From a bacterium (GTDB lineage: Bacteria; Zhuqueibacterota; Zhuqueibacteria; Residuimicrobiales; Krinioviventaceae): a stretch of 64,000 nt of DNA. This document shows, piece after piece, positions 1 through 32,208 of the stretch. The notes beneath the pieces were generated by a model, which worked only from the letters and a program-made list of their open reading frames with translations, made no database searches and was not told where the DNA came from. The stretch's first letter is position 1; each line of letters begins with the position of its first letter. Location: assembly GCA_963674595.2 (NCBI GenBank), contig CAXXFV010000006.1, positions 64,001 to 128,000 of the forward strand, read 5' to 3'. The translations under genes and the position numbers were made by a program.

Positions 1-321
1 ATGGTCTTTGATATCGCATTCATTCTTTTCGATCCGAACATAATTTAAAATTTCCGGATAATCTTTTTCCAGTGCCGGTCCCCAGGGCGCTGAGGCCAAA
101 GGGGCCTGACCATGCATTTCTTTATAGTCCCATTGCCTTTCGATTCGAACAATGTTTTCCAGATTTTTATTAAAAGTGTCATAACTTAATTCGTGCTGGA
201 CCCAATAATAGATCATAATACAAGCGGCTAATCCTATGGTTAGGCCAGATATGTTTATAAATGCATATAACTTGTTGCGCAGCAGATTTCTAAAAGCGAT
301 TTTCAAGTAATTTTTCAACAT
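1..321 (-). CDS. ABC permease (MacB/FtsX family), N-terminal part, truncated by the window edge
   Basis: Not in the ORF track. Hand translation from ATG at 321 gives MLKNYLKIAFRNLLRNKLYAFINISGLTIGLAACIMIYYWVQHELSYD..., the same N-terminal signature as the neighbouring permeases. The frame is open to position 1. Confidence 0.9.
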   Translation of the reverse strand, partial: MLKNYLKIAFRNLLRNKLYAFINISGLTIGLAACIMIYYWVQHELSYDTFNKNLENIVRIERQWDYKEMHGQAPLASAPWGPALEKDYPEILNYVRIEKNECDIKDH

Positions 322-333
322 TGCGAATTCACC

Positions 334-2670
334 TTATTCATATTTTAAAGTTTGTACCGGATTTGTCATAGCTGCTTTTAATGTATGAAAGCTGATTGTA
401 AACAAAGCCAACAGTATTGTTATCAGTCCTGTTATGAGAAATGGAGTTACTGAAAGATTTATGCGATAGGCATAGTTTTTCAGCCAGTTGTTGATAAATA
501 ACCAGGAAACAGGCCAGGCTATTAAATTTGCTAAAAGAACCCATTTTGAAATGTTTTTGTAAAAGAGCAAAAGAATAGCCGGTACCGAGGCCCCGGCTAC
601 TTTACGGATTCCGATTTCTTTTGTCCGTCGCTCGACCATAAAGATAGACAATCCAAAAAGTCCCATACTGGAAATAATAATAGTTAACAGAGCAAATGAT
701 GTGAATAATTTTCCCAGTTGTTGCTCAGATTGGTAAAGTGACTCAAAATCCTGGTCCATAAAATTATAAGAAAACGGGAATCCCGGGGCAATGCTGTTTA
801 TTGTTTTTTCGATATGTTGTAAAGATGCCTCTATTTCTGATGGTTTTATTTTTATGGCCAGATAATTATACCACCTGGGATCAAGATCAAAGGCACAGGG
901 TTTAATTTCAGAGTGAAGAGAATTGAAATTAAAATCTTTAATAACACCGATAATGCGGCCGTTACCTGATATGGATTTCCCTACGGGATTTTCGAGTCCC
1001 ATTTGTTTAACCGCCGTTTCGTTGATAACAAAACCCAGGCTGTCTGATGCAATATCCTCTGAAAAAAATCTGCCGGCGGCCATATTTATTTGAAACGTTT
1101 CAGTAAAATCAGGAGATACCGAAATAATATTCATCAAAATTGATTTTTGCTGATCGTTTCCTTCCCATTGATTAACATCGATACTTGCAAAGGCTTTTAT
1201 ACCAATTTTGTCTGATAGAACAGCGACATGAGTTATAGATGGTTTTTTAAGCAATTCATGTTTGATGGTATTGACTTTTGATTTACTCTCTCTATTTAGA
1301 GGAACAAATACAATGTGACTTTTCTCAAATCCCGGATTTTGTGCACGAAGATAATTCAGTTGACGTGAGATAAAAAGAGTCGCAACGATTAATATAGCTG
1401 TCATTGTAAATTGGAAAATAACAAGAACAGACCGGAACAAAGATGAACCGGAGGCCTGTTTACCTTTAAAAATAGCCACTGGTTTCAGTGAAGACAAATA
1501 CAAAGCCGGATAACTACCGGAAATAATGCCGGTAAATATAGATAGTATTAAAAGAGCGCCTATGAGCGGTAAGTTGTGCAGGATATTAAAGGTCAGATAT
1601 TTACCTGAATACTGGTTAAAGACCGGTACTAACAACTTGACAATTAACAGGCTTGAAAACAGTGATAAAATTGTGATAAAAACAGCTTCCAGATAAAACT
1701 GGATTGTCAGGTCCAGTTTGTTTGCACCGACAACTTTACGCAATCCGATTTCTTTTGTTCGAACAGATGTTCTCGCCGTGGTCAGGTTCATAAAGTTAAT
1801 ACAGGCAATGAGCAAAACAAATACGGCAATAACGGTAAAAATATAAATATAGGTAATGATACCGCCGCCGTTGATATTGCGGATATGTATGTCTTTTAAG
1901 GCCTGAAGGTATAATTTCGGTTTCCACTTGAAAGTAGCGGACTGTGCGGCAAAGTCTGCAATTTTGGTGTTCAAGTCGCTCACATTCGTATTCTCATTGA
2001 GCAATACAAATGTATTATAGCCCCATTCGTGCCAATTATTTTCATCACCGCTTCCCATCAATTCTTTATAATGTTTAAAGGGAAAAAACAGTTCACATTG
2101 AAAATAACTGTTTTTCGGAATGTCTTTAATAACGGCTGTTATTTTAAAATCGGTTTTATTGTTTACCGTAATTATTTTATCCAGAGGTTCCGTATCGCCA
2201 AACAGTTTGTGCGCCATTGTCTCCGTAATAACAACAGAGTAGGGAAGTGTCAGAGCAGATTGCTTGTCTCCTTTAACAAAATCATAGGAAAAAATATCAA
2301 AAAAATCGGGATTGGCAAAACTACTCTTTGTTTCTAAAACTGATTCGTTTCGAGTGATCAGTAACCTGTCCTGCAATTTATAGGTTGTTGATTTTGTGAT
2401 TTCAGGAAATTTATTTTTTATCGCCTTTGCCAGGGCCGTCGGTGTGGAGGCATAATTGCGCATTTCTTTATATGTGGCATCTTTTAAATTGACTCTGTAA
2501 ATGGAACCTGTGTTTTTATGAAACGAGTCATAGCTTAATTCATGCTGAATCCACACCATGATAAAAACGCAAACCGACAATCCGGCTGTTAATCCGATTA
2601 TATTGATAAACGTAAATAATTTCTGTTTACGCATAATTCGTAATATTATTTTTAAATGATTGAAGAGCAT
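334..2670 (-). CDS. ABC transporter permease, duplicated MacB_PCD + FtsX architecture
   Basis: 778 aa; motifs INIIGL, ELSYD, IACINFMNL...KEIGLRKVVGA, second half RTKEIGIRKVAGAS, C-terminal NPVQTLKYE. Confidence 0.95.
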   Translation of the reverse strand: MLFNHLKIILRIMRKQKLFTFINIIGLTAGLSVCVFIMVWIQHELSYDSFHKNTGSIYRVNLKDATYKEMRNYASTPTALAKAIKNKFPEITKSTTYKLQDRLLITRNESVLETKSSFANPDFFDIFSYDFVKGDKQSALTLPYSVVITETMAHKLFGDTEPLDKIITVNNKTDFKITAVIKDIPKNSYFQCELFFPFKHYKELMGSGDENNWHEWGYNTFVLLNENTNVSDLNTKIADFAAQSATFKWKPKLYLQALKDIHIRNINGGGIITYIYIFTVIAVFVLLIACINFMNLTTARTSVRTKEIGLRKVVGANKLDLTIQFYLEAVFITILSLFSSLLIVKLLVPVFNQYSGKYLTFNILHNLPLIGALLILSIFTGIISGSYPALYLSSLKPVAIFKGKQASGSSLFRSVLVIFQFTMTAILIVATLFISRQLNYLRAQNPGFEKSHIVFVPLNRESKSKVNTIKHELLKKPSITHVAVLSDKIGIKAFASIDVNQWEGNDQQKSILMNIISVSPDFTETFQINMAAGRFFSEDIASDSLGFVINETAVKQMGLENPVGKSISGNGRIIGVIKDFNFNSLHSEIKPCAFDLDPRWYNYLAIKIKPSEIEASLQHIEKTINSIAPGFPFSYNFMDQDFESLYQSEQQLGKLFTSFALLTIIISSMGLFGLSIFMVERRTKEIGIRKVAGASVPAILLLFYKNISKWVLLANLIAWPVSWLFINNWLKNYAYRINLSVTPFLITGLITILLALFTISFHTLKAAMTNPVQTLKYE

Positions 2671-2691
2671 TTCGTTCTCCTGATATTTCTT

Positions 2692-4194
2692 TTAATCCTG
2701 AAAATGTGTTTGAAAAAATGAAAAAAACTCCGGGATCATTTGATACCACTCGTCATGATGATGTCCGCCATCAAAAAGGACATATTTATGATCCATGCCT
2801 TTTGTTTGTAATAACGAATGAAATTCTTCCGCCACCTTGTTTAATCCCAGTTCATCACTGTTGCCGCAGGTTATAAAAATATTTTGTTTAATTTTTTGCT
2901 GAGAATTGGAAACGATATAAAAGGGATTTTTTTCTACATATTCTTTTTGGGGTCTGTGCAGAACGCCGGAAACAGATACGACAGCTTTAAACCTGTCCGG
3001 ATACCTCAGTCCGAAACTCATGGCGGCAGTGCCACCGTTTGATAAGCCGATGATCCCGCAGGTGTTTTCGTTGACCCGATATTTACTTTCAACACAGGGT
3101 ATCAGTTCCTGGATAAAACTTTTTTCCAGATTTTTACCCGTTAAAGGCTCTACAAGAAACCTGGAACCTCGTGATCCCTGAGTGCCAATCAGGATAAAGG
3201 GTTCAACCTTTTTGGATAGGATCAAGTCATTATATATTTGATCCAGTCGACCGTTAACCAATGTTCCGTATATTTCGCTTCCGCCGCCAAAAGCGTAAAT
3301 AACCGGATATTTTTTGTTTTTATTCGTATAATAATCGGGCGGCAAGTACACACCGAAAACCCGTTCCTCGGATAAAATATCTGATTTATAATAATCCCTT
3401 ATCAAATAAAACGGCTGTTTTATTAATTCGCCATTTTGCAAAAAAAGTTCGTCAATAAAAATCCTTTTTGAAGATTGATAATCCATTTCAATTTGAAATA
3501 AATATTGACTTGTTCCGGAATTTTCTTTTTTGCCCAATGGTTGAATTTCAATGTGCCGGGGAAATTCACCGAATAATTGATAATCGTTTTTTAACTTCAA
3601 CTGTTCAAAAGAGAGGTCTGTGCTACCGGATAATTGACTGATTATATTTTCAACAAGAGGTTTCCAGGCATCTGTTTTAGGAGTATAGGGCAGGTACTGG
3701 TTGTTTTTAATAAAATCCTGTAATTTTATAATTGATGGAATTCTATTATAAAACCCGCCGCGTTTGGAATTATTTTCAATTATAAAAGAGAGCTTTACCT
3801 CTTTATTAGTATTTATAGAAGCCGGAATGTAGAATAGCGAATTCTTCCAGTTTTCAATCCGGAATAAAGGCGAAAGTGAACCGCAGGTGCCAACCAGGGA
3901 ATCGTTCCAATTGGCTTTAACAGCTTCACCAACTTTACCAATCATCAGTATTAAATCCGTGTTTACAAAATCGTCGGGAATCGTTTCGCGTATTGAAACA
4001 TTAAATTTTCCGATTTGCTCAAAGAGTAATTTGTCAGTAGGCTTTTCAATTTTAATCTGTGATTGCTGCGAGGGTGATGACTCTGCTTGAATGGTGTAAT
4101 TGCCGGTTAATTCTAACATATCCTGACTGGAAGAGATTTGACAGGTACAGAACACAATCACTAAAAATAGAAAGATATAACGTTTTTTATTCAT
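2692..4194 (-). CDS. Secreted alpha/beta-hydrolase (putative esterase, Fes/XynB-like C-terminal domain)
   Basis: Signal-like N-terminus; VYLPPDY...KYPVIY, nucleophile elbow GLSNGG, CGNSDELG, C-terminal GGHHH. Confidence 0.8.
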   Translation of the reverse strand: MNKKRYIFLFLVIVFCTCQISSSQDMLELTGNYTIQAESSPSQQSQIKIEKPTDKLLFEQIGKFNVSIRETIPDDFVNTDLILMIGKVGEAVKANWNDSLVGTCGSLSPLFRIENWKNSLFYIPASINTNKEVKLSFIIENNSKRGGFYNRIPSIIKLQDFIKNNQYLPYTPKTDAWKPLVENIISQLSGSTDLSFEQLKLKNDYQLFGEFPRHIEIQPLGKKENSGTSQYLFQIEMDYQSSKRIFIDELFLQNGELIKQPFYLIRDYYKSDILSEERVFGVYLPPDYYTNKNKKYPVIYAFGGGSEIYGTLVNGRLDQIYNDLILSKKVEPFILIGTQGSRGSRFLVEPLTGKNLEKSFIQELIPCVESKYRVNENTCGIIGLSNGGTAAMSFGLRYPDRFKAVVSVSGVLHRPQKEYVEKNPFYIVSNSQQKIKQNIFITCGNSDELGLNKVAEEFHSLLQTKGMDHKYVLFDGGHHHDEWYQMIPEFFSFFQTHFQD

Positions 4195-4243
4195 TATTTA
4201 ATACCTCGTTTTTACGTGTATTATAATTTTGTACAGGATCGTT

Positions 4244-4423
4244 TTACTCATACCTCAAACTCTCCACCGGATTGGCGGTAGCTGCACGGACCGTTTGAAA
4301 ACTGATCGTTAATAAAGCGATAACCAGTGCAGATACCCCTGCCAGCAAAAACGGCCAGATGGTTAAATCAATTCGATAGGCAAAGTTTTGCAGCCATTTG
4401 TTCATAGCGTACCAGGCAAGGGG
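4244..4423. repeat. Permease 3'-tail repeat, copy A
   Basis: 176/180 identical to 9097-9276 by manual alignment; similar to 6751-6939 and 13400-13552. Confidence 0.95.
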
Positions 4424-6706
4424 CCAGGCGATGAGGTTGGCGATTAAAATCAATACTAATAATTCTTTGATAAGGAAATTGATGATATTTGGTATTGATG
4501 CGCCAAATATTTTTCGTATCCCAATCTCTTTTGTCCTTTTTTCAGTAGTAAATGCAATTAAACCGTATAGACCCAAACAAGCGATGATAATAGCCAGAGA
4601 GGATGAGAGATTCAAGAGCAAAATTGTTTTTAATTCGGATTTGTATATTTTTTCAAAATGTTCATCCAAAAAGAAAAATTCAAAGGGACGGTCTGGAAAA
4701 TGCTCCGGCCATTTTTTTGCCATATAGTGTAAACATTCTGAAACCTGAATTGGATTAATTTTGACTGAGAGATATTTTCCCCAGCCGATATAAAAAACAA
4801 GCGGTTGTATTTTTTTATAAACAGGCGCAAAATTAAAATCTTTAACCACACCGATGACTCTGCCAGGTTTGTTTTGTGACCATGCTGAATGAAATATTTT
4901 GTTGATCGGCTCTTCCCATCCAATTGTTTTGACGGCTGTTTCATTCACTATATAAGCATGTGTTGCATCTGTTCCATAGTCTTGAGAAAAATCTCTTCCT
5001 TTAATAATTTCAAAATTATATGTTTTTATAAAATCGTAATCTACTCTAATTGTTGGAAAACTGGTTTTATTATCATGTTGTTCCAGCATTACTGGTGCGT
5101 CACTGTACTTGTTGCCTTCCCACCAAAATCGCATTGAACGTTTACCTGTCATACCACTTGGAAAGTCTGAAGAAGCAGAAACGTTTAAAATCCCGTTATG
5201 TTGTTCCAGTTGTTTTTTATATGACAGATGTTTTTGTTTACCCCAGTTTCCCCGAAGCGGAATTACCAGAATTTGGTTTTTAAACACACCAAGTTGTTTT
5301 TTATGCATATATTTCAGTTGATTTGCAAAAATTAACGTTGTACATATTAATGCAATACAAATTACAAATTGCGAAACGACTAGAACCTTTTTAAAAGTGA
5401 ATTTGGTATGTCTATTTGAAAAGGCCTTTTGGAAAACGGAAACAGGATGAAAACCGGACAGGAACACTGCGGGGTACCATCCAGCAATTAAACCAAGAAA
5501 GAGTGTGATAATCAGAAAACCCAATATAAGGGGCCAGTTTTGAAAATAATGCAATGTCAGGTTCCGGTCCACAAGTTGACTGAAAAAGGGTAATATTAAT
5601 TCCGTTAAAAGCAAAGCGGCAATAAAAGCAAAAATCGCTGTAAATAGTGATTCGCCAAGAAATTGTATAATTAAAGATTTACGTTGTGCTCCAATGACTT
5701 TACGAACCCCTATTTCATGCGCTCGATTTTCAAAACGGGATGTTGATAAATTCATATAATTGATACAGGCAATAACAAGAATTAAAAGGGCAATAACAGA
5801 TAGCATTATTATTTGCCTGTAATTTTCATTGGTTTCAAGGCCGTTCCTCCCCATTATATAAAGATGTGTTTTGGTGAGTGGCTGGAAAGCCGGAAGCCTT
5901 GTAATTTCTTTGGGATAATCCGGGCTCGGATGTTTATTAGCAAATTCAATGAGTTTATTTTCCAATGTTGAGGGTGAATGCTTTTTATCCATTAACACAA
6001 AAGATTTAAAAGTATTTGATCTGCGCCATCTGTCCCAGGGTGAAGGAGAAATCCCAATCACCTCTTCAGCGCAGGACATGGACGCCAGAAAGTCAAATTT
6101 TATGTGTGAATTATCCGGAATATTTTTTAATACGCCTGTAATTGTAAAATCGAATTTTTTAAATTGATTGTCATATACAATAATTTTACCAACAGGGTTT
6201 TCGTCTCCGAAATATTTTTCAGCCATTTGTTCAGTCAATACGATGGAATAGGGATTGACAAGCGCTGTCCTTGGGTTACCTTGTATTAAGGGGTATGTAA
6301 ATATTTCAAATACTGTTGCATCTGCAAAAAGTATATGTTCTTCATAAAACCGATTTTCGCCGTAGGACAGTAATATTTTTTGTTCGTTTCTCAAAGGGGC
6401 ATATATTGCGCTTGTAAACCGACAATAATTTAGAATTTCCGGAATTTCATCACAAATTGCCGGTGTCATGGGTGCCGATGTTTCTGCAAAGAAAATTGAA
6501 TCTGGTCCTCGACGTATTTCTGTATGGACTTTATAAATGCAATCTGCATTTTCGTGAAACCGGTCTGAACTTGCCTCATGATACGCGTAAATAAAAATCA
6601 TAAATGCAACTGTTAATCCGACCGACATACCAAAAACATTTATTAAAGTAAATGCTTTATGTTTTAACAAGTTTCGAAGTGCAATTTTCACATAATTTTT
6701 TAACAT
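4244..6706 (-). CDS. ABC transporter permease (MacB/FtsX duplicated)
   Basis: 820 aa; MLKNYVKIALRNL, IACINYMNL, EIGVRKVIGA, ANPVESLRYE. Confidence 0.95.
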   Translation of the reverse strand: MLKNYVKIALRNLLKHKAFTLINVFGMSVGLTVAFMIFIYAYHEASSDRFHENADCIYKVHTEIRRGPDSIFFAETSAPMTPAICDEIPEILNYCRFTSAIYAPLRNEQKILLSYGENRFYEEHILFADATVFEIFTYPLIQGNPRTALVNPYSIVLTEQMAEKYFGDENPVGKIIVYDNQFKKFDFTITGVLKNIPDNSHIKFDFLASMSCAEEVIGISPSPWDRWRRSNTFKSFVLMDKKHSPSTLENKLIEFANKHPSPDYPKEITRLPAFQPLTKTHLYIMGRNGLETNENYRQIIMLSVIALLILVIACINYMNLSTSRFENRAHEIGVRKVIGAQRKSLIIQFLGESLFTAIFAFIAALLLTELILPFFSQLVDRNLTLHYFQNWPLILGFLIITLFLGLIAGWYPAVFLSGFHPVSVFQKAFSNRHTKFTFKKVLVVSQFVICIALICTTLIFANQLKYMHKKQLGVFKNQILVIPLRGNWGKQKHLSYKKQLEQHNGILNVSASSDFPSGMTGKRSMRFWWEGNKYSDAPVMLEQHDNKTSFPTIRVDYDFIKTYNFEIIKGRDFSQDYGTDATHAYIVNETAVKTIGWEEPINKIFHSAWSQNKPGRVIGVVKDFNFAPVYKKIQPLVFYIGWGKYLSVKINPIQVSECLHYMAKKWPEHFPDRPFEFFFLDEHFEKIYKSELKTILLLNLSSSLAIIIACLGLYGLIAFTTEKRTKEIGIRKIFGASIPNIINFLIKELLVLILIANLIAWPLAWYAMNKWLQNFAYRIDLTIWPFLLAGVSALVIALLTISFQTVRAATANPVESLRYE

Positions 6707-6750
6707 AATTCATCCCACTTAAACAAAATTATACTTCCAGATTCTATAGT

Positions 6751-6939
6751 CTACTCATACCTTAAACTCTCCACCGGATTGGCCGTGGCTGCCCGGACCG
6801 TTTGAAAACTGATCGTCAGTAAGGCAATTACCAGCGCTGCTAATCCTGCCAGCAAAAACGGCCAGATCGTTAAATCAATTCTGTAAGCGAAACTTTGCAG
6901 CCATTTGTTCATAGCGTACCAGGCAAGGGGAGCGGCGAT
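6751..6939. repeat. Permease 3'-tail repeat, copy C
   Basis: About 87% identical to 9097-9276 by manual count; also shares the further AGCGGCGAT with that copy. Confidence 0.9.
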
Positions 6940-9078: not shown

Positions 9079-9096
9079 AGAACGATATTTTTAGTA

Positions 9097-9285
9097 TTAC
9101 TCATACCTCAAACTCTCCACCGGATTGGCTGTAGCTGCCCGGATTGTTTGAAAACTGATCGTTAATAAAGCGATAACCAGTGCAGATACCCCTGCCAGCA
9201 AAAACGGCCAGATGGTTAAATCAATTCGATAGGCAAAGTTTTGCAGCCATTTGTTCATAGCGTACCAGGCAAGGGGAGCGGCGAT
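9097..9285. repeat. Permease 3'-tail repeat, copy B
   Basis: Contains a 131-nt run fully identical to copy A (9146-9276 = 4293-4423). Confidence 0.95.
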
Positions 9286-11454: not shown

Positions 11455-11600
11455 GTTGGGGATTCCTTTTGTGTTTCTAATTTAAACTCAACTATAAAAT
11501 GGGTTCAAAGTTGGAAAGCCATCCTATCTGAGGCTATTTCGCCAGTCTATTAGCGATTATCAACGTTAGTTTTAAAATTATCCAATATTACATTTAGTGA

Positions 11601-13313: not shown

Positions 13314-13399
13314 GTTTCCTTGTTCTACGTTTATTTTTCTATTGTTGGTTTTAAATTCAGTTTGTTAAATACCAATATTAATTATGTCTCTTAAGATTA

Positions 13400-13552
13400 C
13401 TACTCATACCTTAAACTTTCCACCGGATTGGCCGTAGCTGCCCTTATCGTTTGAAAACTGATTGTTAATAAGGCAATTAATAACGCTGAAAATCCTGCCA
13501 GTAGAAAGGGCCAGATGGTTAAATCGATTCGATAGGCAAAGTGTTGCAGCCA
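13400..13552. repeat. Permease 3'-tail repeat, copy D (more diverged)
   Basis: Encodes WLQHFAYRIDLTIWPFLLAG...ISFQTIRAATANPVESLRYE with clearly aligned nucleotide sequence. Confidence 0.85.
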
Positions 13553-15796: not shown

Positions 15797-15823
15797 ACCT
15801 TAATTAAGAAGGAAAAGAATTTT

Positions 15824-18205: not shown

Positions 18206-18245
18206 AGTTGCCTCATATTAACTCAAATATTGGTGATGTTTGTCA

Positions 18246-20708: not shown

Positions 20709-20802
20709 ATTTTTAATCCAGCCAAGATTGTTTAAAATTCATTTTTATCTCTCAAGTTCTCATTTTGATATTCTGTAAACATCTTTTTTATTTTAGAAAT
20801 TT

Positions 20803-23187: not shown

Positions 23188-23285
23188 TCACTCAATTTTT
23201 GTGAACAGCCTATTTGATTAACTCAATAATTGATTTTATGTTAGACTCTGAAATAGTATGATTTTATAATTCATTTAATTCATAA

Positions 23286-25697
23286 CTATTCATATCTCAA
23301 CGTCTCCACCGGATTGGTTGTGGCCGCTTTGAGCGAACGGGAGTTGACTGTGAGCAACGTTATAAATGCAATAACGAGCAGAGGAATAATAAACAACCAC
23401 GGATTTATATGCATAGGAAAGGCAAAAGTGTTCAGCCATTGTTTTATCGCCAGGTAGGAGAGAGGTATGGAGATAATAAATGACAAACTCATCAACAGAA
23501 TAAATTCTTTGGACAGCAGAAACAATATACCTGAAACATCCGCACCAAGCACTTTGCGGATACCGATCTCTTTGATTCGCCTGGATGCCATAAAAGAAGC
23601 CAGACCAAAAATACCAAGTCCGGTAACAAACAGGGCAAGAAATGAAAACAAGCCGACAACCTGTCCCAAAAGTTCATCTGCCTGGTATTGTTGATTGTAA
23701 TAGTCATCCAGAAAAAAGAAATCAAATGGATTGCCGGGAAAGAATTTTTTATAGTTTTGTTCAAGCGTTTTTATGGTATTTTGAATGTCTGCTGTTCCGA
23801 CTTTAACGGCAAACTGGCCCCGCACATCGCGTCCACCCGGTAAAAAACGATATATATGCGGTTCAAAAGCTTGTTTTAGGGACTGTTGATGAAAGTCTTT
23901 CAGAACACCGATGAGTGTATAGGTTTTTCCCCAATAACTGATTTCCTTGTTTAGTGCCTGTTCTTTATTTTCAAATCCAATCCACTTTACCGCTGTTTCA
24001 TTAAAAATAAGGGCGTCTTTGTCTGTTGCAAACTCTTTGGAAAAATTGCGGCCGCCGGCCAGTTTCAAATCGAAAAAATCAATATAGTCGTAATCAATAC
24101 CCACAATCTGATAGTTCTTCCCCTGACTGACGTCCTGACCTTTGATGAAAATACCGCCGTTGTCCCAGTAAATTTGCCGTCCCGGTACTTCGGTACAGAC
24201 ACAGAATTTTTTTATGTCTGTTTGCCGCAGCAATTCTTGTTTAAAGGTTTCCAGTTTGTTGTTAAAATTGTCATCCCGAACCCGTGGCGCTTTGATAACA
24301 ACGACCTGTTCCATATTAAAGCCAAGGTCCTGTTTTTTCATAAAGGCTATTTGTTGTGAAATGGTCAAGGTCCCTGTAATCAAAACAAAGGCCATGATAA
24401 ATTGAAAGATAACCAATGCTTTTCGCAAATTGAATTTACAACCTGCTTTACCGGAAAATCCTTTGAGTGTTTTTATCGGTTCAAAAGAGGTCATTACTAT
24501 TACAGGATAAATTCCCGAAAAAAGCACGCCGGCCAGAAAGAACAGCGCCAGGTATGGGAAAAACCATGTTTGACTCCACAAGGGCCATGAAACCGGGAGA
24601 CCTGTCAGGTTACAAAAGAGCGGGTTCAGCAGTTTGATTGCTCCCAGGGCTAGAACGACTGCAAAAATATTTATCAGCACGGTTTCCAAAAGAAACTGGA
24701 TTAATAGCTGACTTTTGGTCGCACCGATAACTTTGCGCAGGCCCACTTCCCGTGCCCGTGTCAAAGACTGTGAGGTGGAAAGATTGATATAATTTACCCA
24801 TGCAATAACAATAATAATCAGAGCAATGATATATAGATATTTTATAGTTTCATTGTTGCCGTTGGCCTCATATTCCTGCATATAGTGCGAGGTCAGGTGG
24901 ATGTCGGTTACCGGCTGAAAAACGAGATCAATGGTCATTTTATAATCTACCAGCCAGGGACAATTAGCTGTGACAAGATCGGCAAATCCCTGCTTTAAAT
25001 CAGCAGGTGTGGTTCCTTGCTGCAAACGCAGGTAGGTATAGGCGCCTGTGTGACCCCAGGCTTCCTCATAGGAGGGGCCGTATTTGGCGGCAAGGTTTTT
25101 CCATGGAAGAACGATGTCGAATTTTAAATGCGAGTTTTCCGGAGTGTCTTTAAATGTCCCGATTATCTGATAATCATCTTTCTTATCCACGCTCAATACC
25201 TTGCCGATGGGGGAGAGATCACCGAAATATTTTCGTGCCGTTGATTCGGATACATAAGCTTTATTCGGTTCTTTTAAACCGTCCACCGGATTTCCTTCCA
25301 GGAATGGAAACTCAAATATTTCAAAAAATTCCGGTTCCATAAAATACATACGTTCTTCAGGAAACATTATATCGCCAAAGGAAACCGAAGCACGGTATCT
25401 GAAAATTTTGGCTATTTTTTCGACATTGGAAAATTGTTCGCGAATTAGCGGCGCAGCCGGAGGGCAACATGATGCAAACCGGACTGTTTTGCCTTCTGAA
25501 CTGGTCCGTTCATAGCGTAATCTGTAAATGCGGTCAGTGTCTGCGTGAAATTTATCATAACTCTGTTCGAATTTGATGTAATGAAGGATCAGTAAACACG
25601 CTGTTATACCCACGGCCAGGCCAAGAATATTGATAGATGAAAAAAGAGTATTTTTTTTCAGGTTCCGAAAAGCAGATTTCAGATAATTAAAAAACAT
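23286..25697 (-). CDS. ABC transporter permease (MacB/FtsX duplicated), first of the array
   Basis: 803 aa; MFFNYLKSAFRNL, IAWVNYINL, REVGLRKVIGA, KEIGIRKVLGA, NPVETLRYE. Confidence 0.95.
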   Translation of the reverse strand: MFFNYLKSAFRNLKKNTLFSSINILGLAVGITACLLILHYIKFEQSYDKFHADTDRIYRLRYERTSSEGKTVRFASCCPPAAPLIREQFSNVEKIAKIFRYRASVSFGDIMFPEERMYFMEPEFFEIFEFPFLEGNPVDGLKEPNKAYVSESTARKYFGDLSPIGKVLSVDKKDDYQIIGTFKDTPENSHLKFDIVLPWKNLAAKYGPSYEEAWGHTGAYTYLRLQQGTTPADLKQGFADLVTANCPWLVDYKMTIDLVFQPVTDIHLTSHYMQEYEANGNNETIKYLYIIALIIIVIAWVNYINLSTSQSLTRAREVGLRKVIGATKSQLLIQFLLETVLINIFAVVLALGAIKLLNPLFCNLTGLPVSWPLWSQTWFFPYLALFFLAGVLFSGIYPVIVMTSFEPIKTLKGFSGKAGCKFNLRKALVIFQFIMAFVLITGTLTISQQIAFMKKQDLGFNMEQVVVIKAPRVRDDNFNNKLETFKQELLRQTDIKKFCVCTEVPGRQIYWDNGGIFIKGQDVSQGKNYQIVGIDYDYIDFFDLKLAGGRNFSKEFATDKDALIFNETAVKWIGFENKEQALNKEISYWGKTYTLIGVLKDFHQQSLKQAFEPHIYRFLPGGRDVRGQFAVKVGTADIQNTIKTLEQNYKKFFPGNPFDFFFLDDYYNQQYQADELLGQVVGLFSFLALFVTGLGIFGLASFMASRRIKEIGIRKVLGADVSGILFLLSKEFILLMSLSFIISIPLSYLAIKQWLNTFAFPMHINPWLFIIPLLVIAFITLLTVNSRSLKAATTNPVETLRYE

Positions 25698-25736
25698 ACC
25701 GGCTCCGTTGATGTTTTAGTTAGGTGTTATACAGAA

Positions 25737-26426
25737 CTAGATATGGAACTGACTGTTGAGGTTTTCGGTAACAACATGACCGTCAAACAAGTGAATCGTC
25801 CGGTTTCCATATTCGGCATAGGTTGGTGAGTGAGTTACCATGATAATCGTGGTGCCGTTATTGTTTAACTCGGTCAGAATGTTCATCACTTCGTCACCAT
25901 GCGCAGAATCGAGATTACCGGTCGGTTCATCAGCGAGAATAATTTTAGGTTTGGCGACAACGGCCCGTGCAACGGCAACACGCTGCTGCTGTCCTCCTGA
26001 TAGCTGTTGTGGAAAATGGTTGCGGCGGTGCATAATTTGCATGTGTTCCAACGCTTCCTCAACACGTTTTTTACGATCGGACGTGTTTACTTTGAGGTAT
26101 AATAACGGCAGTTCAACATTTTCAAAAACAGTCAATTCGTCGATCAGATTAAAACTCTGGAAAACAAACCCGATATTTGATTTTCGCATATTGGCCCGTT
26201 GGCGTTCCGTATATTTTGCCACTTCTTCATCCAGAAAAAAATATTCGCCGTCAGATGGATTGTCCAGCAATCCAAGCAGGTTCAGCAGGGTTGATTTTCC
26301 GCAGCCTGAAGGCCCCATAATGGATACGAATTCTTTTTCTCTTATTTCAATGTTGATATTATTTAACGCTGTTGTTTCAACCTCTTCGGTGGTATAAATT
26401 TTCTTTAAATTTTTAGTCTTAATCAT
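25737..26426 (-). CDS. ABC transporter ATP-binding protein (MacB/LolD/FtsE subfamily)
   Basis: Walker [19 protein letters not shown], signature LSGGQQQRV, Walker [13 protein letters not shown]-loop VTHS. Confidence 0.97.
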
Positions 26427-26449
26427 ATGACTGCTCCTTTAAACTGTTT

Positions 26450-26794
26450 TTATGCGGCGAGCTGTTTTATTTTTGAAAATTTTTTTAATTTTATCAGATG
26501 ATTATTGAAAAAATAATATTGCGCGTCTGTTATTGTTTTATTTTGATAGATTTTTTCTACGAGATGCAGCAGTTTTTGAGATGTTGATTCGATCTCTTTT
26601 AATATTGAAACTGTATTTTTATCATGATGGTGAAAAATGTATTTTTGCACCATTGTTAAAATTTTTATTGTCAAACATTGTATGGCACAACGATACGCTT
26701 GTGCCGGTTCTGCTGGAAATGAATCTGCTGTTTTCAGCAAAACCACGGAAAAAAGCCGGCATTGCTGCCATATTTTCTGATCGTTCTTTTCCAT
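26450..26794 (-). CDS. Small helical protein, probably a divergent four-helix-bundle (23S rRNA-IVP/Avd-like) family member
   Basis: 114 aa. It starts 2 nt after the MFP stop. N-terminus KIWQQ...LLKTADSFPAE resembles the family pattern VWQKA...IY..T..FP.EE. Confidence 0.5.
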   Translation of the reverse strand: MEKNDQKIWQQCRLFSVVLLKTADSFPAEPAQAYRCAIQCLTIKILTMVQKYIFHHHDKNTVSILKEIESTSQKLLHLVEKIYQNKTITDAQYYFFNNHLIKLKKFSKIKQLAA

Positions 26795-26796
26795 TT

Positions 26797-28047
26797 TTAT
26801 TTCAATAACAGCTTTTCAATATCACCAAAATTATCATAAGAGGACGTAATGACTTTTTCACCCACTTTTAGGCCTTCCAGAACTTCATAAACATTCAGGT
26901 TTTGTCGTCCCAAACGAATGGGGCGTTTCACGGCAAAATTACCGGATTCATCCACCACATAAACCCACTGACCGCCGGTTTTCTGGTAAAAACCGCCTCT
27001 GGGTAAAAGCGTTGCAACAGTTAAATCGCCCAGTTCCAGTTGAATATGCAGGGTTTGCCCACGTCTTATGCCCTCCGGTTCCTTGTCGGCAAATTCAAGG
27101 TCTACTTCAAAGCGGCCTTCCAAAACTTCAGGGAATATTTTTTTAACAATCATTTTATAGTTTTCTCCGGCGAATTCGAAACGGCCTGTGCGTCCCAATT
27201 CAATTCGGGCAATGTAATGTTCATCAACCTTTGCCCTGACTTTAAATCCATCCAGTACATCAACCTGTCCCAGTCGTTGTCCTGTTGATTTTGATTCGCC
27301 TACTTCGGCATTCAACGATGTAAGCTGACCGGTGACCGGTGCTTTAAGGACAAGATTTTCCATATTTTGTTTTACTATTTCAAGGTTGCTTTCCATGCGA
27401 TTCAGCGAGATTTCCAGATTTGTAATCTGTATCTCACGGAACAATGAATCCTGTTTATGCGAAGTCAATGTTAATTCACGTTTTTTAAGAGAATACTCGT
27501 AATTATCCCGTGCCAGTTCAAATTCTTCCTGTGAAATAAGGTTTTTATCTAAAAGTTGCTGCGCTCTTTCAAAAGCCCTTTTCTGCTTTTTAATGGTAAA
27601 ATTTAATTCAATTAACTGGCCCTGAAGAGACAATTTGTTTTGTTCCATCTGCAGCCGTGTGTTACGAAGATTGTTACTTTGTGCAAACAATTCGGCTTCC
27701 CGGTACATAATTTCCATTACCAAATTTGTATTGGTGAGTTTTAAAATTTTATCACCTTTTTGTACAAAGTTTCCGGCTTCAAGATACAATGTGTCAACCC
27801 GTCCGCCTTCAATGGCATCCAGATAGATAGTTTTTATGGGGATAACATTGCCTATTATCGGAATAAACTCTTGGAAATCGCCTTCCGTGACGGTGGAAAT
27901 GGTTATCCGTTCGGTTTGCACGTTTAGTTTGCTGCTGTGGTCGCCGAATAAAATGTTATAAAATACGATAATAACAAATAAAGCAGCAATAGAGTAAATG
28001 AGAATATTTTTCAGGGTCCATTTTTTTTTCTTGATCTGTCTGTCCAT
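26797..28047 (-). CDS. Efflux periplasmic adaptor (membrane-fusion protein, HlyD/MacA family)
   Basis: MDRQIKKKKW followed by a single TM; lipoyl halves LDAIEGGRV...VQKGD and KAPVTGQL around a coiled coil; C-terminal EVLEGLKVGEKVITSSY. Confidence 0.92.
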   Translation of the reverse strand: MDRQIKKKKWTLKNILIYSIAALFVIIVFYNILFGDHSSKLNVQTERITISTVTEGDFQEFIPIIGNVIPIKTIYLDAIEGGRVDTLYLEAGNFVQKGDKILKLTNTNLVMEIMYREAELFAQSNNLRNTRLQMEQNKLSLQGQLIELNFTIKKQKRAFERAQQLLDKNLISQEEFELARDNYEYSLKKRELTLTSHKQDSLFREIQITNLEISLNRMESNLEIVKQNMENLVLKAPVTGQLTSLNAEVGESKSTGQRLGQVDVLDGFKVRAKVDEHYIARIELGRTGRFEFAGENYKMIVKKIFPEVLEGRFEVDLEFADKEPEGIRRGQTLHIQLELGDLTVATLLPRGGFYQKTGGQWVYVVDESGNFAVKRPIRLGRQNLNVYEVLEGLKVGEKVITSSYDNFGDIEKLLLK

Positions 28048-28083
28048 ATTAGCATCTCGGATTAGGTTTTTATTTTCAACTAG

Positions 28084-28100
28084 AGCACAAAATGTGCCAA
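28084..28100 (-). promoter_or_regulatory. Sigma54 (-24/-12) promoter of the transporter operon
   Basis: Minus strand TTGGCACATTTTGTGCT = GG-N10-GC with TGGCAC consensus, ~37 nt upstream of the MFP start and adjacent to a sigma54 activator gene. Confidence 0.85.
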
Positions 28101-28171
28101 TGGATTTTAAGCTTATACAAGCTTGAATTTTTAGCTGTAAAAAAATCAGGTATACGGTTTCATTACAAAGG

Positions 28172-28189
28172 GTGTGCGAATTCGCACAC
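28172..28189. promoter_or_regulatory. Perfect 18-bp palindrome, probable enhancer (UAS) for the adjacent bEBP
   Basis: GTGTGCGAATTCGCACAC, ~70-90 bp upstream of the -24 element. Confidence 0.7.
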
Positions 28190-28286
28190 TTTAATCCAAT
28201 TTATAAAAATTTTATGGAATAAACGCTTGATTTCTTGGTACAAATTTTGTAATTCTAAGATGCGAATTTAATATAAGGACGCATGC

Positions 28287-29660
28287 ATGAGTATATCACT
28301 AGGTAAAATTTTAATCGTTGATGATAATGAAGACATTTTATTCGCGGGTCGGCTGTTGTTAAAAGAGTATGCCTCATTGATACATACGGAAAAAGACCCG
28401 GAAATGATACCAACTTTATTAAAAAATGAAAACTATGATCTGGTTTTGCTGGATATGAATTTCACCCAGGACGTGACAAGCGGCTCTGAGGGATTTTTTT
28501 GGTTAAAGAAAATTTTAGAACTGGACCCTGGTATTGTTGTAATTTTGATAACAGCCTATGGTGATGTTGAAATGGCGGTTCGGGCCATTAAAGAAGGGGC
28601 AACTGATTTTGTTTTAAAACCCTGGCAAAATGAAAAACTGCTGGCAACCTTGTCTGCAGCCATGAATTTACGCAGGTCCATGGTAGAAGTGGACCGGTTG
28701 AAAAATCGTCAAAAACAGTTTTATGACGACATGGACCAGCGTTATCATGATATGATCGGTGTTAGTCCCGGTATGCAGCAGGTGTTTAATAGCATCGACA
28801 AGGTGGCAGAAACGGACGCCAATGTTCTTATTCTTGGAGAAAACGGCACCGGCAAAGAACTGGTTGCCAGGGCATTGCACCGGCAATCGGGCCGTTCTAA
28901 TGAAGCTTTTATTAGTGTGGATATGGGGGCTATTACCGAAACCCTGTTTGAGAGTGAACTGTTCGGGCATGTAAAAGGAGCTTATACGGACGCCCGGCAG
29001 GACCGCATCGGCCGTTTTGAACTGGCAGCCGGCGGTACGTTGTTTTTGGATGAAATTGGTAATTTATCCATGGCCCAACAGGCCAAATTATTAAGGGTCC
29101 TGGAAGAGCGTCAGGTTACTCGTATCGGTTCGAACAAATCCATTCCCATTGACATTCGTTTGATTTGTGCGACAAACATGCCCATTTATGAAATGGTCGC
29201 CCAAAAAGAGTTCCGCCAGGATTTGCTGTATCGTATCAATACCGTTGAAATTCATTTGCCGCCGCTTCGGGAACGCGTTCAGGACATTCCCTTGCTTGTA
29301 GACCACTTTTTGCAGATTAATAGTAAAAAATATAAAAAGAACATTTCAGGAACAAGTCCGGCTACCTTGAAGAAATTACAAACCTATCAATGGCCGGGAA
29401 ATATCCGGGAACTGCGGCATTCGATAGAGCGGGCTGTTATAATGAGTGATTCTGTGATTTTACAACCCCCGGATTTTTTGCTGACGGATGTTTCCGAAGA
29501 AGAAGGTATTGTTCTTGACGGTTATGATTTGGAAAAAGTAGAAAAAACCGTTATTCGTAAAGTATTGCTGGCAAACCATGATAATATTTCCCATGCCGCC
29601 AAAGAACTGGGAATTACCCGGACCGCATTATACCGACGGATGAAAAAATATGGGCTTTAA
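28287..29660 (+). CDS. Sigma54-dependent response regulator (REC-AAA+-Fis HTH, NtrC family)
   Basis: ILIVDD, LLDMNF, KPW; GENGTGKEL, ESELFGHVKGAYTDA (GAFTGA-loop variant), LFLDEIG, FRQDLLYRIN, WPGNIREL; HTH NISHAAKELGITRTALYRRM. Confidence 0.96.
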   Translation: MSISLGKILIVDDNEDILFAGRLLLKEYASLIHTEKDPEMIPTLLKNENYDLVLLDMNFTQDVTSGSEGFFWLKKILELDPGIVVILITAYGDVEMAVRAIKEGATDFVLKPWQNEKLLATLSAAMNLRRSMVEVDRLKNRQKQFYDDMDQRYHDMIGVSPGMQQVFNSIDKVAETDANVLILGENGTGKELVARALHRQSGRSNEAFISVDMGAITETLFESELFGHVKGAYTDARQDRIGRFELAAGGTLFLDEIGNLSMAQQAKLLRVLEERQVTRIGSNKSIPIDIRLICATNMPIYEMVAQKEFRQDLLYRINTVEIHLPPLRERVQDIPLLVDHFLQINSKKYKKNISGTSPATLKKLQTYQWPGNIRELRHSIERAVIMSDSVILQPPDFLLTDVSEEEGIVLDGYDLEKVEKTVIRKVLLANHDNISHAAKELGITRTALYRRMKKYGL

Positions 29661-31002
29661 AAACTTTCGTTTTCAATGTTTGTGGCGTTTGTTTTTCATT
29701 TTTTTGTCCCTGACGGCAACCACCTATTTTTTAACCCAGACAAAACTTTATGCCACGGTCATTATATTTGTGTTTATTATTGCTCTGCAGCTTTATAACC
29801 TGTTTTTATATGTTCAAAAAACAAATATTGAGTTGAAACGTTTTCTGGAATCAATTCGTCATTCAGATTTTTCAACCAGCTTTACACGGTATGAATCCGA
29901 TGTCGGTTTCGGGGATTTGTATGATGAATTTAATCTGGTCATCAAACAGTTTCAAAAGGCACGTTCCGAAAAGGAAGAACAATACCGCTACCTGCAAACC
30001 GTGGTTCAACATATCGGCACCGGACTTTTTGCCTTTAAAGCCACCGGCGAAATCGATCTGATCAACAATGCTGCCAGACGTCTGCTGAAAATTCCTCATG
30101 CCCGGCACATTAAACAATTGCAGCAATCCTGTCCTGAACTGGCGGAAAAAATTTTGCAGCTCCGTTCCGGGCAAAAAACTCTTGTAAAGCTTTATATTGA
30201 AAACGAATTTTTACAGCTCACTGTTTATGCAACAGAATTTGTTTTACATCAGCAAAAATATAAACTGGTTTCCCTTTCCAATATTCAAAGTGAACTGGAA
30301 GAGAAGGAAATGGAAGCCTGGCAAAACCTGATCCGGGTACTGACACATGAAATTATGAACTCGATTACGCCCATATCTTCACTGGCGTCAACCACCACTA
30401 AAATTGTCGGCAAACATTTGGATAAATTCGATCATCCCAGCGATGCTGCTGAGGATTTTCAGGATGTCTTACAGGCTATCCAAACCATTGAAAAGCGAAG
30501 TAATAACCTGCTGCACTTTGTACAAAATTATCGCAAGCTTACCAAAATACCGGCGCCTGATTTTAAAATATTTCAGATTTCAGAACTGTTTGCCCAGGTG
30601 AATCAGCTTGTACGTGCGCAGATGCAGCAGTTTGGAATTCAGTACCAATGCTCCATCGATCCCGAATCTTTGGAACTGACGGCTGATCCGGGTTTGCTGG
30701 AACAGGTATTGTTAAATTTGTTGAAAAATGCCGTCGAAGCTGTTCAGGGACAAACGGCGCCTGTTGTTGAACTAGATGCCGGTCTTGATGGCACAGGCAG
30801 ACCCTTTATTCGTGTTTCCGACAATGGTTATGGCATTCAAAAAGACGCCATGAAAAATATGTTTATTCCGTTTTTTACCACCAAAAAGGAAGGCTCCGGT
30901 ATCGGTCTTTCGTTATCCCGGCAGATCATGCGCCAGCATGGCGGTGCTATTCAGGTGGTTTCTGTTCCCAATGAAAAGACTGTTTTTACCCTGCGGTTTT
31001 GA
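29650..31002 (+). CDS. Sensor histidine kinase (two adjacent TMs, PAS-like region, HisKA/HATPase)
   Basis: H-box LTHEIMNS, N-box QVLLNLLKNA, DNGYGI, FFTTK, GSGIGL; overlaps the regulator stop by 11 bp. Confidence 0.94.
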   Translation: MGFKNFRFQCLWRLFFIFLSLTATTYFLTQTKLYATVIIFVFIIALQLYNLFLYVQKTNIELKRFLESIRHSDFSTSFTRYESDVGFGDLYDEFNLVIKQFQKARSEKEEQYRYLQTVVQHIGTGLFAFKATGEIDLINNAARRLLKIPHARHIKQLQQSCPELAEKILQLRSGQKTLVKLYIENEFLQLTVYATEFVLHQQKYKLVSLSNIQSELEEKEMEAWQNLIRVLTHEIMNSITPISSLASTTTKIVGKHLDKFDHPSDAAEDFQDVLQAIQTIEKRSNNLLHFVQNYRKLTKIPAPDFKIFQISELFAQVNQLVRAQMQQFGIQYQCSIDPESLELTADPGLLEQVLLNLLKNAVEAVQGQTAPVVELDAGLDGTGRPFIRVSDNGYGIQKDAMKNMFIPFFTTKKEGSGIGLSLSRQIMRQHGGAIQVVSVPNEKTVFTLRF

Positions 31003-31074
31003 ATTTTAGATTTTGATTTAAATTAAATTTGATGAGGAATTTAATCCAGATTCCTTTGTAACGTACCTAATTAT

Positions 31075-31461
31075 TTATTCTCCTGTATTAAAAAGCCAAT
31101 TCCTGGCATCCTCTTCATTATCAAATATTTTAACCGGAAAACCGCGATTCGATGCCACTGTTGCAGCAAAAACATTATCCTGCCGTGATTGTTCGTTAAG
31201 GTCTACGACAGCCAGTTGAAATTTACGACTCCAACCGACTGCATCGGGATTTTTTGCGCCATAATATGCTTTCATGATAGGCAACCGTCCCGTAAGGTTT
31301 AAAATAGCCAATATTTTATGGATTGACTTTTCATGGCACATTTTCATTACACGTATCCAGACGTTGGTCATAATTTCTGTTTCCTGCCCTGGTATTCGGT
31401 CCCCTGATACTTTAACCAGAATATAATTTTCTTCTTCCTGTATGATAACATTGTCCGTCAT
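31075..31461 (-). CDS. STAS/SpoIIAA-like small protein
   Basis: 128 aa; ends TVASNRGFPVKIFDNEEDARNWL, typical of SpoIIAA-like proteins; GAGGAG RBS. Confidence 0.7.
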   Translation of the reverse strand: MTDNVIIQEEENYILVKVSGDRIPGQETEIMTNVWIRVMKMCHEKSIHKILAILNLTGRLPIMKAYYGAKNPDAVGWSRKFQLAVVDLNEQSRQDNVFAATVASNRGFPVKIFDNEEDARNWLFNTGE

Positions 31462-32177: not shown

Positions 32178-32208
32178 AAAATTTTTTATCTATCCCTACT
32201 ATTAACTT

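Follow-up and report, generated by a model that had tools for sequence, protein, structure and literature searches.

A predicted sigma-54-controlled gene array combining one ABC ATPase and one adaptor with ten divergent MacB/FtsX-type permeases in a Zhuqueibacterota genome

We analysed a 64,000-nt stretch of bacterial DNA, referred to below as the window (GenBank assembly GCA_963674595.2, contig CAXXFV010000006.1, positions 64,001 to 128,000 of the forward strand; family Krinioviventaceae, Zhuqueibacterota), in which a long array of ATP-binding cassette (ABC) transporter genes lies behind a sigma-54 promoter and next to a divergent two-component system. The array is a co-oriented run on the minus strand: an adaptor of the membrane fusion protein (MFP) type, a protein of 114 amino acids (aa), an ABC ATPase and ten permeases, the last of them cut by the window edge, with an S41 peptidase and an esterase interspersed. 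Beginning with the divergent genes and then following the array in its reading direction, the features are as follows (TM, transmembrane; TPR, tetratricopeptide repeat; ORF, open reading frame).

29650–31002, plus strand: histidine kinase, 450 aa, with HATPase_c and an H-box HEIMN at residue 233; the gene overlaps that of the regulator by 11 nt
28287–29660, plus strand: NtrC-type response regulator, 457 aa, with receiver, sigma-54 AAA+ and Fis helix-turn-helix domains (Sigma54_activat E 4e-68), divergent from the array
28172–28189, no strand assigned: 18-bp perfect palindrome GTGTGCGAATTCGCACAC, about 75 bp upstream of the sigma-54 promoter and present as a single copy in the window
28084–28099, minus strand: sigma-54 promoter TGGCACATTTTGTGCT, with −24 GG and −12 GC at canonical spacing, 36 bp upstream of the adaptor start codon
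26797–28047, minus strand: adaptor (MFP), 416 aa, Pfam HlyD_3 and HlyD_D23, with an N-terminal TM anchor at residues 15–33
26450–26794, minus strand: 114-aa soluble helical protein
25737–26426, minus strand: ABC ATPase of the LolD/MacB type, 229 aa (ABC_tran E 4e-35), the sole ATPase gene of the array
23286–25697, minus strand: permease P1, 803 aa, fused double MacB_PCD and FtsX
20803–23187, minus strand: permease P2, 794 aa
18246–20708, minus strand: permease P3, 820 aa; the ORF starts with TTG and an ATG stands 3 codons further in
15824–18205, minus strand: permease P4, 793 aa
13400–15796, minus strand: permease P5, 798 aa
11601–13313, minus strand: exported serine peptidase of the S41 family with a C-terminal TPR module, 570 aa
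9097–11454, minus strand: permease P6, 785 aa
6751–9078, minus strand: permease P7, 775 aa
4244–6706, minus strand: permease P8, 820 aa
2692–4194, minus strand: exported esterase, 500 aa; residues 1–270 belong to no known family and 272–488 form an alpha/beta hydrolase of the CE1/esterase-D type
334–2670, minus strand: permease P9, 778 aa
1–321, minus strand: tenth permease, first 107 aa, cut by the window edge with its ORF open at the 3′ end

The gaps between the genes of this run measure 2–146 bp, and 10 of the 14 are shorter than 50 bp. A consensus scan for minus-strand terminators gave no match inside any intergenic gap of the run, all its hits lying outside the gaps, and in the four largest gaps predicted folding is no stronger than in shuffled sequences (z from −0.32 to +1.07). 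A preliminary description of this DNA had reported a single sigma-54 promoter ahead of the adaptor, the small helical protein, the ATPase and ten co-oriented permeases (nine of them complete), spacers of 2–150 bp, an interleaved S41 peptidase and esterase, one ATPase and one adaptor for at least ten permeases, and the lack of a strong internal terminator. Gene calls, domain matches and coordinates bear out all of these points. Judged from its sequence signals, the minus strand of positions 1–28100 is most likely one sigma-54-dependent operon, and we infer that the array is co-transcribed.

The adaptor scores 134.8 bits against TIGR01730 (cut-off 94.9). The ATPase carries both the Walker A motif, GPSGCGKS, and the signature motif, LSGGQ, and matches the DarD, LolD, FtsE and MacB models. 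All nine complete permeases match MacB_PCD and FtsX above the Pfam cut-offs, with two FtsX stretches in every one of them and two MacB_PCD stretches in seven; the fragment of the tenth has a MacB_PCD match (E 3e-5) and TM1. An AlphaFold2 model of P1, built on a 103-sequence alignment (predicted local distance difference test (pLDDT) 92.5, predicted template-modelling score (pTM) 0.90), consists of 8 TM helices, 2 periplasmic domains and a C-terminal helix, with a short helix after TM2 and another after TM6 that carry the motif EIGxRKxxGA. This coupling motif is found in both halves of P1 and P3–P9 and as a variant in P2, and a C-terminal tail, NPVxSLRYE, is retained across the window paralogues. 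On domain matches and model together, each permease is predicted to be a fused double MacB/FtsX unit of the type VII ABC (MacB/FtsX) superfamily.

Searching the Protein Data Bank (PDB) with the P1 model returned E. coli YbbP as the best full-length fold match (E 2e-18, TM-score 0.47–0.50, 13–14% identity), followed by MacB, the periplasmic domain of a Porphyromonas permease, LolCDE, BceB and HrtB; no solved structure of a directly fused 8-TM class was among the results of that search. The portion of a 2018 review that sets out the layouts of MacB, LolCE, YbbP and BceB does not include the 8-TM fused class (PMC5985334).

The nine paralogues are 25–40% identical in pairwise comparison, and the divergence is uneven along the chain. 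Mean pairwise identity is 26% in periplasmic domain 1 and 28% in periplasmic domain 2, and rises to 35% over TM2–TM4, 42% over TM6–TM7 and 52% over TM8 and the C-terminal tail. The periplasmic domains had been called barely alignable; they are indeed the most divergent parts, but they still match the Pfam MacB_PCD model at E 1e-20 to 4e-33. Because the paralogues are only 25–40% identical and the closest relative of any of them reaches 55%, synonymous sites are saturated.

To place the array among its relatives, we scanned one genome per species with an adaptor profile, which gave 501 confirmed places, and kept 80 loci, each fetched with a flank of about 10 kb and annotated with profiles built from the window proteins. 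The adaptor served as search bait and is present in 80 of 80 loci by design. Adaptors of this kind are plentiful: of the 8000 candidates scored, this number being the cap, 7969 have E ≤ 1e-20. The top matches, 63–77% identical, come from KSB1, Marinimicrobia, Calditrichia, Gemmatimonadota and others. Among the scanned genomes the closest adaptor is 66% identical, and the adaptor tree sets the window among metagenome-assembled genomes (MAGs), some unlabelled and some labelled 'Cytophagia'. Relatives of P1 make up 19,938 clusters (50%-identity representatives) at E ≤ 1e-30 and 96,854 at E ≤ 1e-3; many of them are 860–900 aa long, with an extra N-terminal extension of about 75 residues.

The layout of kinase and regulator on one side and adaptor, ATPase and permeases on the other recurs in more than ten phyla, among them Bacteroidota, Calditrichota, Ignavibacteriota, Fidelibacterota/Marinimicrobia, KSB1, Zixibacteria, Latescibacterota, Cloacimonadota, Gemmatimonadota and Acidobacteriota. 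A regulator, a kinase or both lie divergently upstream in 53 of the 80 related loci, many of the others being cut by contig ends. The control signals recur as well. In the window, the regulator and adaptor genes are separated by 239 bp that hold the promoter TGGCACATTTTGTGCT, the sole match with at most one mismatch to TGGCAC-N5-TTGC in the 64 kb. Upstream of the adaptor gene, the pattern GGCA[CT]-N5-TTG is found in the sense orientation in 34 of 77 related loci and in the antisense orientation in 0 (mean of shuffles, 0.27), and the palindrome core TGTnCG-N4-CGnACA in 33 of 74 (mean of shuffles 0.17, maximum 2). Such graded patterns, with antisense and shuffle controls, superseded strict promoter patterns that had matched 14 of 78 loci with the start taken from the longest ORF and 16 of 77 with a profile-derived start, many variant −12 elements being seen by eye. 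The palindrome GTGTGCGAATTCGCACAC is a putative binding site, or upstream activating sequence (UAS), of the NtrC-type regulator.

A second sigma-54-like motif of the window, TGGCATAATGAATGCA (53321–53336, minus strand), lies within the 5′ part of ORF 52406–53524, which encodes a protein with a type IX secretion system (T9SS) sorting tail and whose true start may be downstream.

The regulator and kinase are equally characteristic of the family. Across 48 regulators (that of the window plus one from each of 47 related loci), 39 have GAFTDA as their sigma-54 contact loop and 3, the window regulator included, have GAYTDA. The window kinase begins with a hairpin of two TM helices joined by a turn of about 5 residues, has no periplasmic domain and gives weak PAS and HisKA matches. 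A two-helix hairpin with a turn of 2–5 residues is present in all 43 aligned kinases (that of the window and 42 from related loci), in keeping with the earlier view that this kinase lacks a periplasmic sensor. Beside the kinase gene, two small minus-strand ORFs (31785–32177 and 31075–31461) were noted, one weakly VanZ-like (E 4e-4, below the cut-off) and the other with no family match.

Conservation across the related loci falls into two classes. Compared with its homologues in those loci, the window ATPase has a median identity of 74%, the regulator 63%, the adaptor 55% and the kinase 46%, as against about 33% for the permeases; when the closest counterpart of each window permease is taken from any locus, identity is 33–55%. 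A FastTree tree of 107 complete permeases from the window and the related loci does not unite the nine window paralogues in one clade. The sister of P1 is the permease standing second in a Calditrichota locus (55% identity, support 100); the permease standing first there groups with P8, which reverses the order of the two. P4 falls inside a Bacteroidota clade, P5 with Glassbacteria, P6 and P3 with Ignavibacteria, and P2 sits on a long branch with unsure placement. Average-linkage clustering of the same 107 permeases at about 40% identity gave 21 subfamilies and 35 singletons, with the nine window permeases in nine different groups; single-linkage clustering at 42% chained most permeases into one group and was dropped.

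The strings of permeases also differ from locus to locus, within a genus too (three loci each in Ferruginibacter and Mucilaginibacter), and only those of two Bacteroidales MAGs match, with the qualification that loci of related species need not be orthologous. At least 9 kb of downstream DNA was available for 40 loci; 6 of these have no complete permease, 10 have 1, 8 have 2 and 16 have 3. In 16 of the 40 the array was still running at the end of the fetched DNA, so large arrays are probably common. In 27 of the 37 loci with at least two permease ORFs there is exactly one ATPase gene. The preliminary description had suggested comparing array content across related genomes, and that comparison yields the contrast it looked for, a conserved core (46–74%) beside permeases (about 33%) that vary in number and type; identical permease order in distant relatives, which it had named as counter-evidence, was not seen among the related loci. 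Its picture of an expandable, interchangeable repertoire holds in that permease number and type vary between loci, but the tree argues that the paralogues are old lineages and not a locally diversifying library.

One part of the permeases does bear a mark of local exchange. Over their last ~180 nt, P5, P6, P7 and P8 resemble one another far more than they do elsewhere, and these ends form the following tracts.

4241–4432, minus strand: gene-conversion tract at the 3′ end of P8, recorded as a repeat family
6748–6939, minus strand: gene-conversion tract at the 3′ end of P7
9094–9285, minus strand: gene-conversion tract at the 3′ end of P6
13397–13588, minus strand: gene-conversion tract at the 3′ end of P5

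P6 and P8 share 95% of their nucleotides and 92% of third codon positions over the final 189 nt, against a third-position background of about 35%, and this identity falls sharply about 180 nt from the stop. Because P5–P8 belong to different old subfamilies, the homogenised ends are attributed to conversion and not to recent duplication. The segment encodes TM8 and the invariant C-terminal tail. Of 104 pairs within a locus, 9 have at least 75% identity in the 3′ segment, and the window accounts for 6 of these. Of 5149 pairs between loci, 6 do so, and each joins close Bacteroidota relatives: L068, L070 and L080 of Mucilaginibacter supply 5, and the Cytophagales loci L060 and L061 the other. Weaker homogenisation of 3′ ends was noted in L053, L069 and L070.

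Two exported hydrolases are interleaved with the window permeases. The S41 protein scores 49.7 bits against Peptidase_S41 (cut-off 24), with a TPR match in addition, and has a signal-peptide-like N terminus, a GRVTGSA motif and 96 homologues at E ≤ 1e-10. Its model (pLDDT 92.5) matches the folds of a putative Bacteroides protease (4ghn), CPAF, the D1 C-terminal processing protease (1fc7) and CtpA/CtpB, and its fold matches include proteases that work with TPR adaptors (Prc–NlpI and CtpA–LbcA). By fold and predicted serine nucleophile motif, it is placed among the S41 peptidases. The esterase matches the Esterase family (E 9e-26), has a nucleophile elbow, GLSNG, and finds feruloyl and CE1 esterases among its PDB sequence matches. 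Its N-terminal part (1–270) has no Pfam match, and an Atlas comparison gave a weak lead to galactose-binding-like domains (0.84).

Within the operons of related loci or directly behind them lie 36 plus-strand ORFs that the window profiles had left unassigned; among these are 8 hydrolases, 7 TolC-like OEP proteins and 8 IVP proteins, discussed below. The hydrolases are S41 peptidases (L061, L068), a CE1 esterase with TPR (L067), an alpha/beta hydrolase with TPR (L074), a beta-lactamase fold with TPR (L012), a beta-lactamase with NamZ_N (L069), an alpha/beta hydrolase (L010) and an M28 protein (L079); phmmer adds an esterase in L010 and an S41 protein with TPR upstream in L060. Nearly all of these start with a signal-peptide-like segment. 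A C-terminal TPR tail of about 100 aa is present on five hydrolases of different catalytic folds, namely the window S41 protein and four in relatives.

L012, 16853–18658: beta-lactamase-fold protein with TPR tail
L067, 13400–14662: CE1 esterase with TPR tail
L074, 12241–13815: alpha/beta hydrolase with TPR tail
L060, 3773–5506: S41 protein with TPR tail

The tails are alike across folds: those of L074 and L012 are 26% identical over 107 aa (E 8e-10).

Several known systems resemble parts of this array. With MacAB–TolC it shares the FtsX four-helix bundle with a periplasmic domain between TM1 and TM2, a HlyD-type adaptor and a nucleotide-binding domain of the LolD/MacB type, and MacB structures are among the top fold and sequence matches of the permeases. 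MacB, however, is a homodimer of half-transporters with the ATPase fused N-terminally, whereas here the halves are fused in one 8-TM chain and the ATPase is separate (229 aa). Two unlike periplasmic domains per chain, at least ten alternative permeases and control by sigma-54 and a two-component system further set the array apart. The darobactin exporter DarBCD (NF038008, NF038010 and NF038007) likewise consists of an adaptor, an ATPase on its own chain and a duplicated permease, which measures about 780 aa; DarC and DarD are the closest named NCBIfam models for the adaptor and ATPase, and DarB comes second after ADOP for the permeases. We rejected identity with DarBCD on scores of 92–162 bits against a cut-off of 700 for DarB, 202.8 against 450 for DarC and 277.9 against 375 for DarD. 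No radical-SAM (S-adenosylmethionine) or similar biosynthetic family of a dar context was found among the window ORFs scanned, and a DarBCD system has one permease where the window array has at least ten.

The best-scoring NCBIfam model for the permeases is ADOP (TIGR03434), a family of duplicated permeases of Acidobacteria, which they match over its full length (model positions ~4–803) and with which they share an internal duplication and large paralogous families. Identity with ADOP was likewise rejected, the nine permeases scoring 253.1–279.2 bits against a cut-off of 622.3. To our knowledge, the description of the TIGR03434 model gives its function as unknown. ADOP genes are described as 'orphan' permeases without adjacent ATPase genes; the window array, by contrast, has an ATPase at its head, an adaptor and a dedicated regulator pair.

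YbbAP–TesA (PDB 9ge6 and 9ge7) likewise combines a fused two-FtsX permease, two periplasmic domains and a separate ATPase. YbbP differs in having 10 TM helices, 13–14% identity, no adaptor and a single permease, and its partner is an SGNH esterase, not an S41 or CE1 protein. According to the YbbAP–TesA paper, a fused type VII permease can pass membrane-extracted compounds to a periplasmic esterase, and type VII ABC transporters typically pair with, and take their function from, a periplasmic partner protein (PMC12646458). Because YbbAP–TesA hands extracted compounds to a periplasmic esterase, the recurrent hydrolases of the arrays are worth testing as partners.

BceAB–BceRS had been offered as an analogy, and on architecture it fails. 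What the two have in common is an FtsX-fold permease gene that adjoins the gene of a kinase whose sensor region is a bare two-helix hairpin. BceB has 10 TM helices and one extracellular domain, works with an OmpR-type regulator, lacks an adaptor and belongs to Firmicutes, unlike the 8 TM helices, two periplasmic domains, NtrC/sigma-54 regulator and adaptor found here. The system is not of the BceAB type, the kinase hairpin being its sole BceS-like feature. In the nsr operon of nisin resistance (NSR/NsrFP) an S41 peptidase neighbours a transporter, and the preliminary description had drawn a parallel with the NSR peptidase; the window protein is Ctp/CPAF-like with TPR, and no NSR is among the matches listed. 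One energising module serving many interchangeable membrane subunits is known from group II energy-coupling factor (ECF) transporters and the multitask ATPases MsiK and MsmK. Those, however, are importers of unrelated folds with specificity subunits scattered in the genome, whereas here exporter-type permeases of type VII stand in one operon.

The reading towards which we lean, and to which we give a little better than an even chance, is a sigma-54-switched tripartite type VII ABC machine resembling MacAB and DarBCD, with a single ATPase and a single adaptor working for alternative permeases. The divergent pair of hairpin kinase and NtrC-type activator would switch the operon on, the activator binding the palindrome at 28172–28189. 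Each permease would be a pseudo-dimer of two FtsX four-helix bundles, each with its own periplasmic domain, and would bind an ATPase dimer through the coupling helices of both halves (EIGxRKxxGA) and the C-terminal tail. All permeases would draw on one pool of ATPase and adaptor and differ mainly in their substrate-selecting periplasmic domains. If MacB, LolCDE and YbbAP are a guide, ATP hydrolysis would power movements in the periplasm (mechanotransmission); compounds would leave through an outer-membrane duct encoded elsewhere, and for some permeases they may instead go to the array-encoded exported hydrolases, the S41–TPR peptidase and the esterase. We infer the sharing of ATPase and adaptor, as well as the direction of transport, the nature of the substrates and the hydrolase link. 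A shared motor with alternative permeases is consistent with the evidence as an unproven arrangement, and a role in defence against peptides, or in sensing them, may be considered.

Several observations weigh against this shared-motor reading. At least two ATPase genes occur in 10 of the 37 multi-permease loci and are interleaved among the permeases in 5, so dedicated motors exist in the family; the single shared motor that had been proposed thus describes the window array and the 27 one-ATPase loci but is not a family rule. No OEP domain, as expected of an outer-membrane factor, was found among the window ORFs scanned; a partner may be encoded elsewhere in the genome, and in 7 relatives the operon contains, or is directly followed by, a TolC-like OEP gene. 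The window regulator's loop, GAYTDA, departs from the canonical GAFTGA. Weak sigma-70-like matches lie in three gaps of the array (11584–11556, 13368–13341 and 20755–20727), a Bacteroidetes-type TAnnTTTG (−7) motif lies in the gap between P8 and P7, and region 18000–32500 has 69 promoter-like matches against 48.7 ± 5.7 expected, with matches in 1–20000 at chance (80 against 75.9); the consensus used in these sigma-70 and terminator scans may not be that of this organism. Internal promoters may therefore be present, as far as such motif matches can tell. Hydrolases accompany just 2 of the 10 window permeases and are found in or beside the arrays of 9 of the 80 related loci, and the esterase may be an unrelated passenger because it is carbohydrate-esterase-like and glycoside hydrolases are encoded nearby.

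Among the other explanations, one turns on those hydrolases. As in YbbAP–TesA or FtsEX–EnvC, the permeases might feed or activate periplasmic hydrolases in an extract-and-destroy or hydrolase-control scheme, with the TPR tails docking and the adaptor structural. We judge this unlikely, even with YbbP as the best full-length fold match, with the periplasmic partner ascribed to typical type VII ABC transporters in PMC12646458, with hydrolases of five catalytic kinds recurring in or beside the arrays, several of them carrying a C-terminal TPR tail, and with an S41 model that resembles Ctp-type proteases served by TPR adaptors (CtpA–LbcA and Prc–NlpI). A hydrolase gene adjoins only a minority of the permeases, YbbP differs by its 10 TM helices and its lack of an adaptor, and both the adaptor, which is the best-conserved part after the ATPase (as search bait it is in 80 of 80 loci), and the TolC-like genes of 7 loci suggest a duct. 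A wider synthesis, which we regard as rather unlikely, would make the array a modular extract-and-destroy system for envelope clearance in the Fibrobacteres–Chlorobi–Bacteroidetes (FCB) group and its neighbours. Its conserved core would drive alternative permeases that are reshuffled between genomes through recombination at the homogenised 3′ ends, TPR-tagged hydrolases would dock on particular permeases and degrade the extracted material, and the kinase hairpin would read the state of the machine and not a ligand.

The array could also export the cell's own products (peptides, lipids or glycolipids), each permease having its own endogenous cargo as in DarBCD or DevBCA. Although DarC, DarD and, after ADOP, DarB are the closest named NCBIfam models, all Dar scores are far below their equivalog cut-offs; radical SAM, precursor and nonribosomal peptide or polyketide synthase (NRPS/PKS) genes were not found among the window ORFs scanned; and a two-component switch with variable permeases fits a response to outside signals better, which leaves this option quite unlikely. 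Very improbable, in our estimate, is a pile of independent or redundant 'orphan' permeases of the kind proposed for ADOP, separately transcribed and either served by other ATPases or partly non-functional. ADOP as the best-scoring model, the 86–146-bp gaps with weak promoter-like matches and the fragmented permease ORFs of some relatives (for example, L025, L041 and L053) would suit such a pile, but all nine complete permeases of the window have intact genes and conserved coupling motifs, the genes share one orientation with 10 of 14 gaps below 50 bp and no terminators in the gaps, and the adaptor–ATPase–permease order behind a sigma-54 promoter recurs across phyla.

The full-text literature searched, outside subscription journals, yielded no paper that attributes a function to the fused 8-TM class, its sigma-54 control or multi-permease arrays. 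In the consulted portion of one transcriptome paper, similar genes are carried in expression tables only (PMC10434189). If the shared-motor reading is true, the array would represent a new organisation for type VII ABC transporters, with one ATPase and adaptor serving many specificity subunits, and soil, sediment and marine bacteria (Bacteroidota, Calditrichota, Ignavibacteriota, KSB1, Marinimicrobia and others) would likely have in it a major inducible means of tolerating amphiphilic or peptide toxins. A ready reporter for inducing signals is available in the conserved palindrome and promoter, and the recurrent TPR-tailed hydrolases allow a concrete test of the transporter–hydrolase pairing demonstrated for YbbAP–TesA.

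The 114-aa protein encoded between the adaptor and the ATPase has no Pfam or NCBIfam family match and, by phmmer, no homologue in the 80 related loci. Eight relatives (L002, L011, L014, L035, L038, L048, L056 and L057) have genes for a four-helix bundle of the 23S rRNA intervening-sequence protein (IVP) type, seven of the eight proteins being above the Pfam cut-off. These genes lie in the adaptor–ATPase region of the operon, in several cases directly after the adaptor gene, which is also where the window ORF sits. Comparison of the 114-aa protein with these positional counterparts gave a weak, partial match (hhalign, 49.5% probability over 26 columns), and an Atlas lead pointed to bAvd/IVP clusters at 0.86–0.87, below 0.9. 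From these comparisons, the protein is probably a degenerate four-helix-bundle insert of the 23S-rRNA-IVP/bAvd-like kind and not a core part of the system.

Rfam and tRNA scans of the whole window gave no match. Beyond the array and its regulators, positions 32209–64000 encode a GH106 rhamnosidase, a GH43 enzyme, BNR/sialidase-like and FGE-sulfatase-like proteins, three proteins with T9SS C-terminal sorting domains and a GAF–PAS kinase of the HWE type; this part of the window is a polysaccharide-degrading context of the FCB type.

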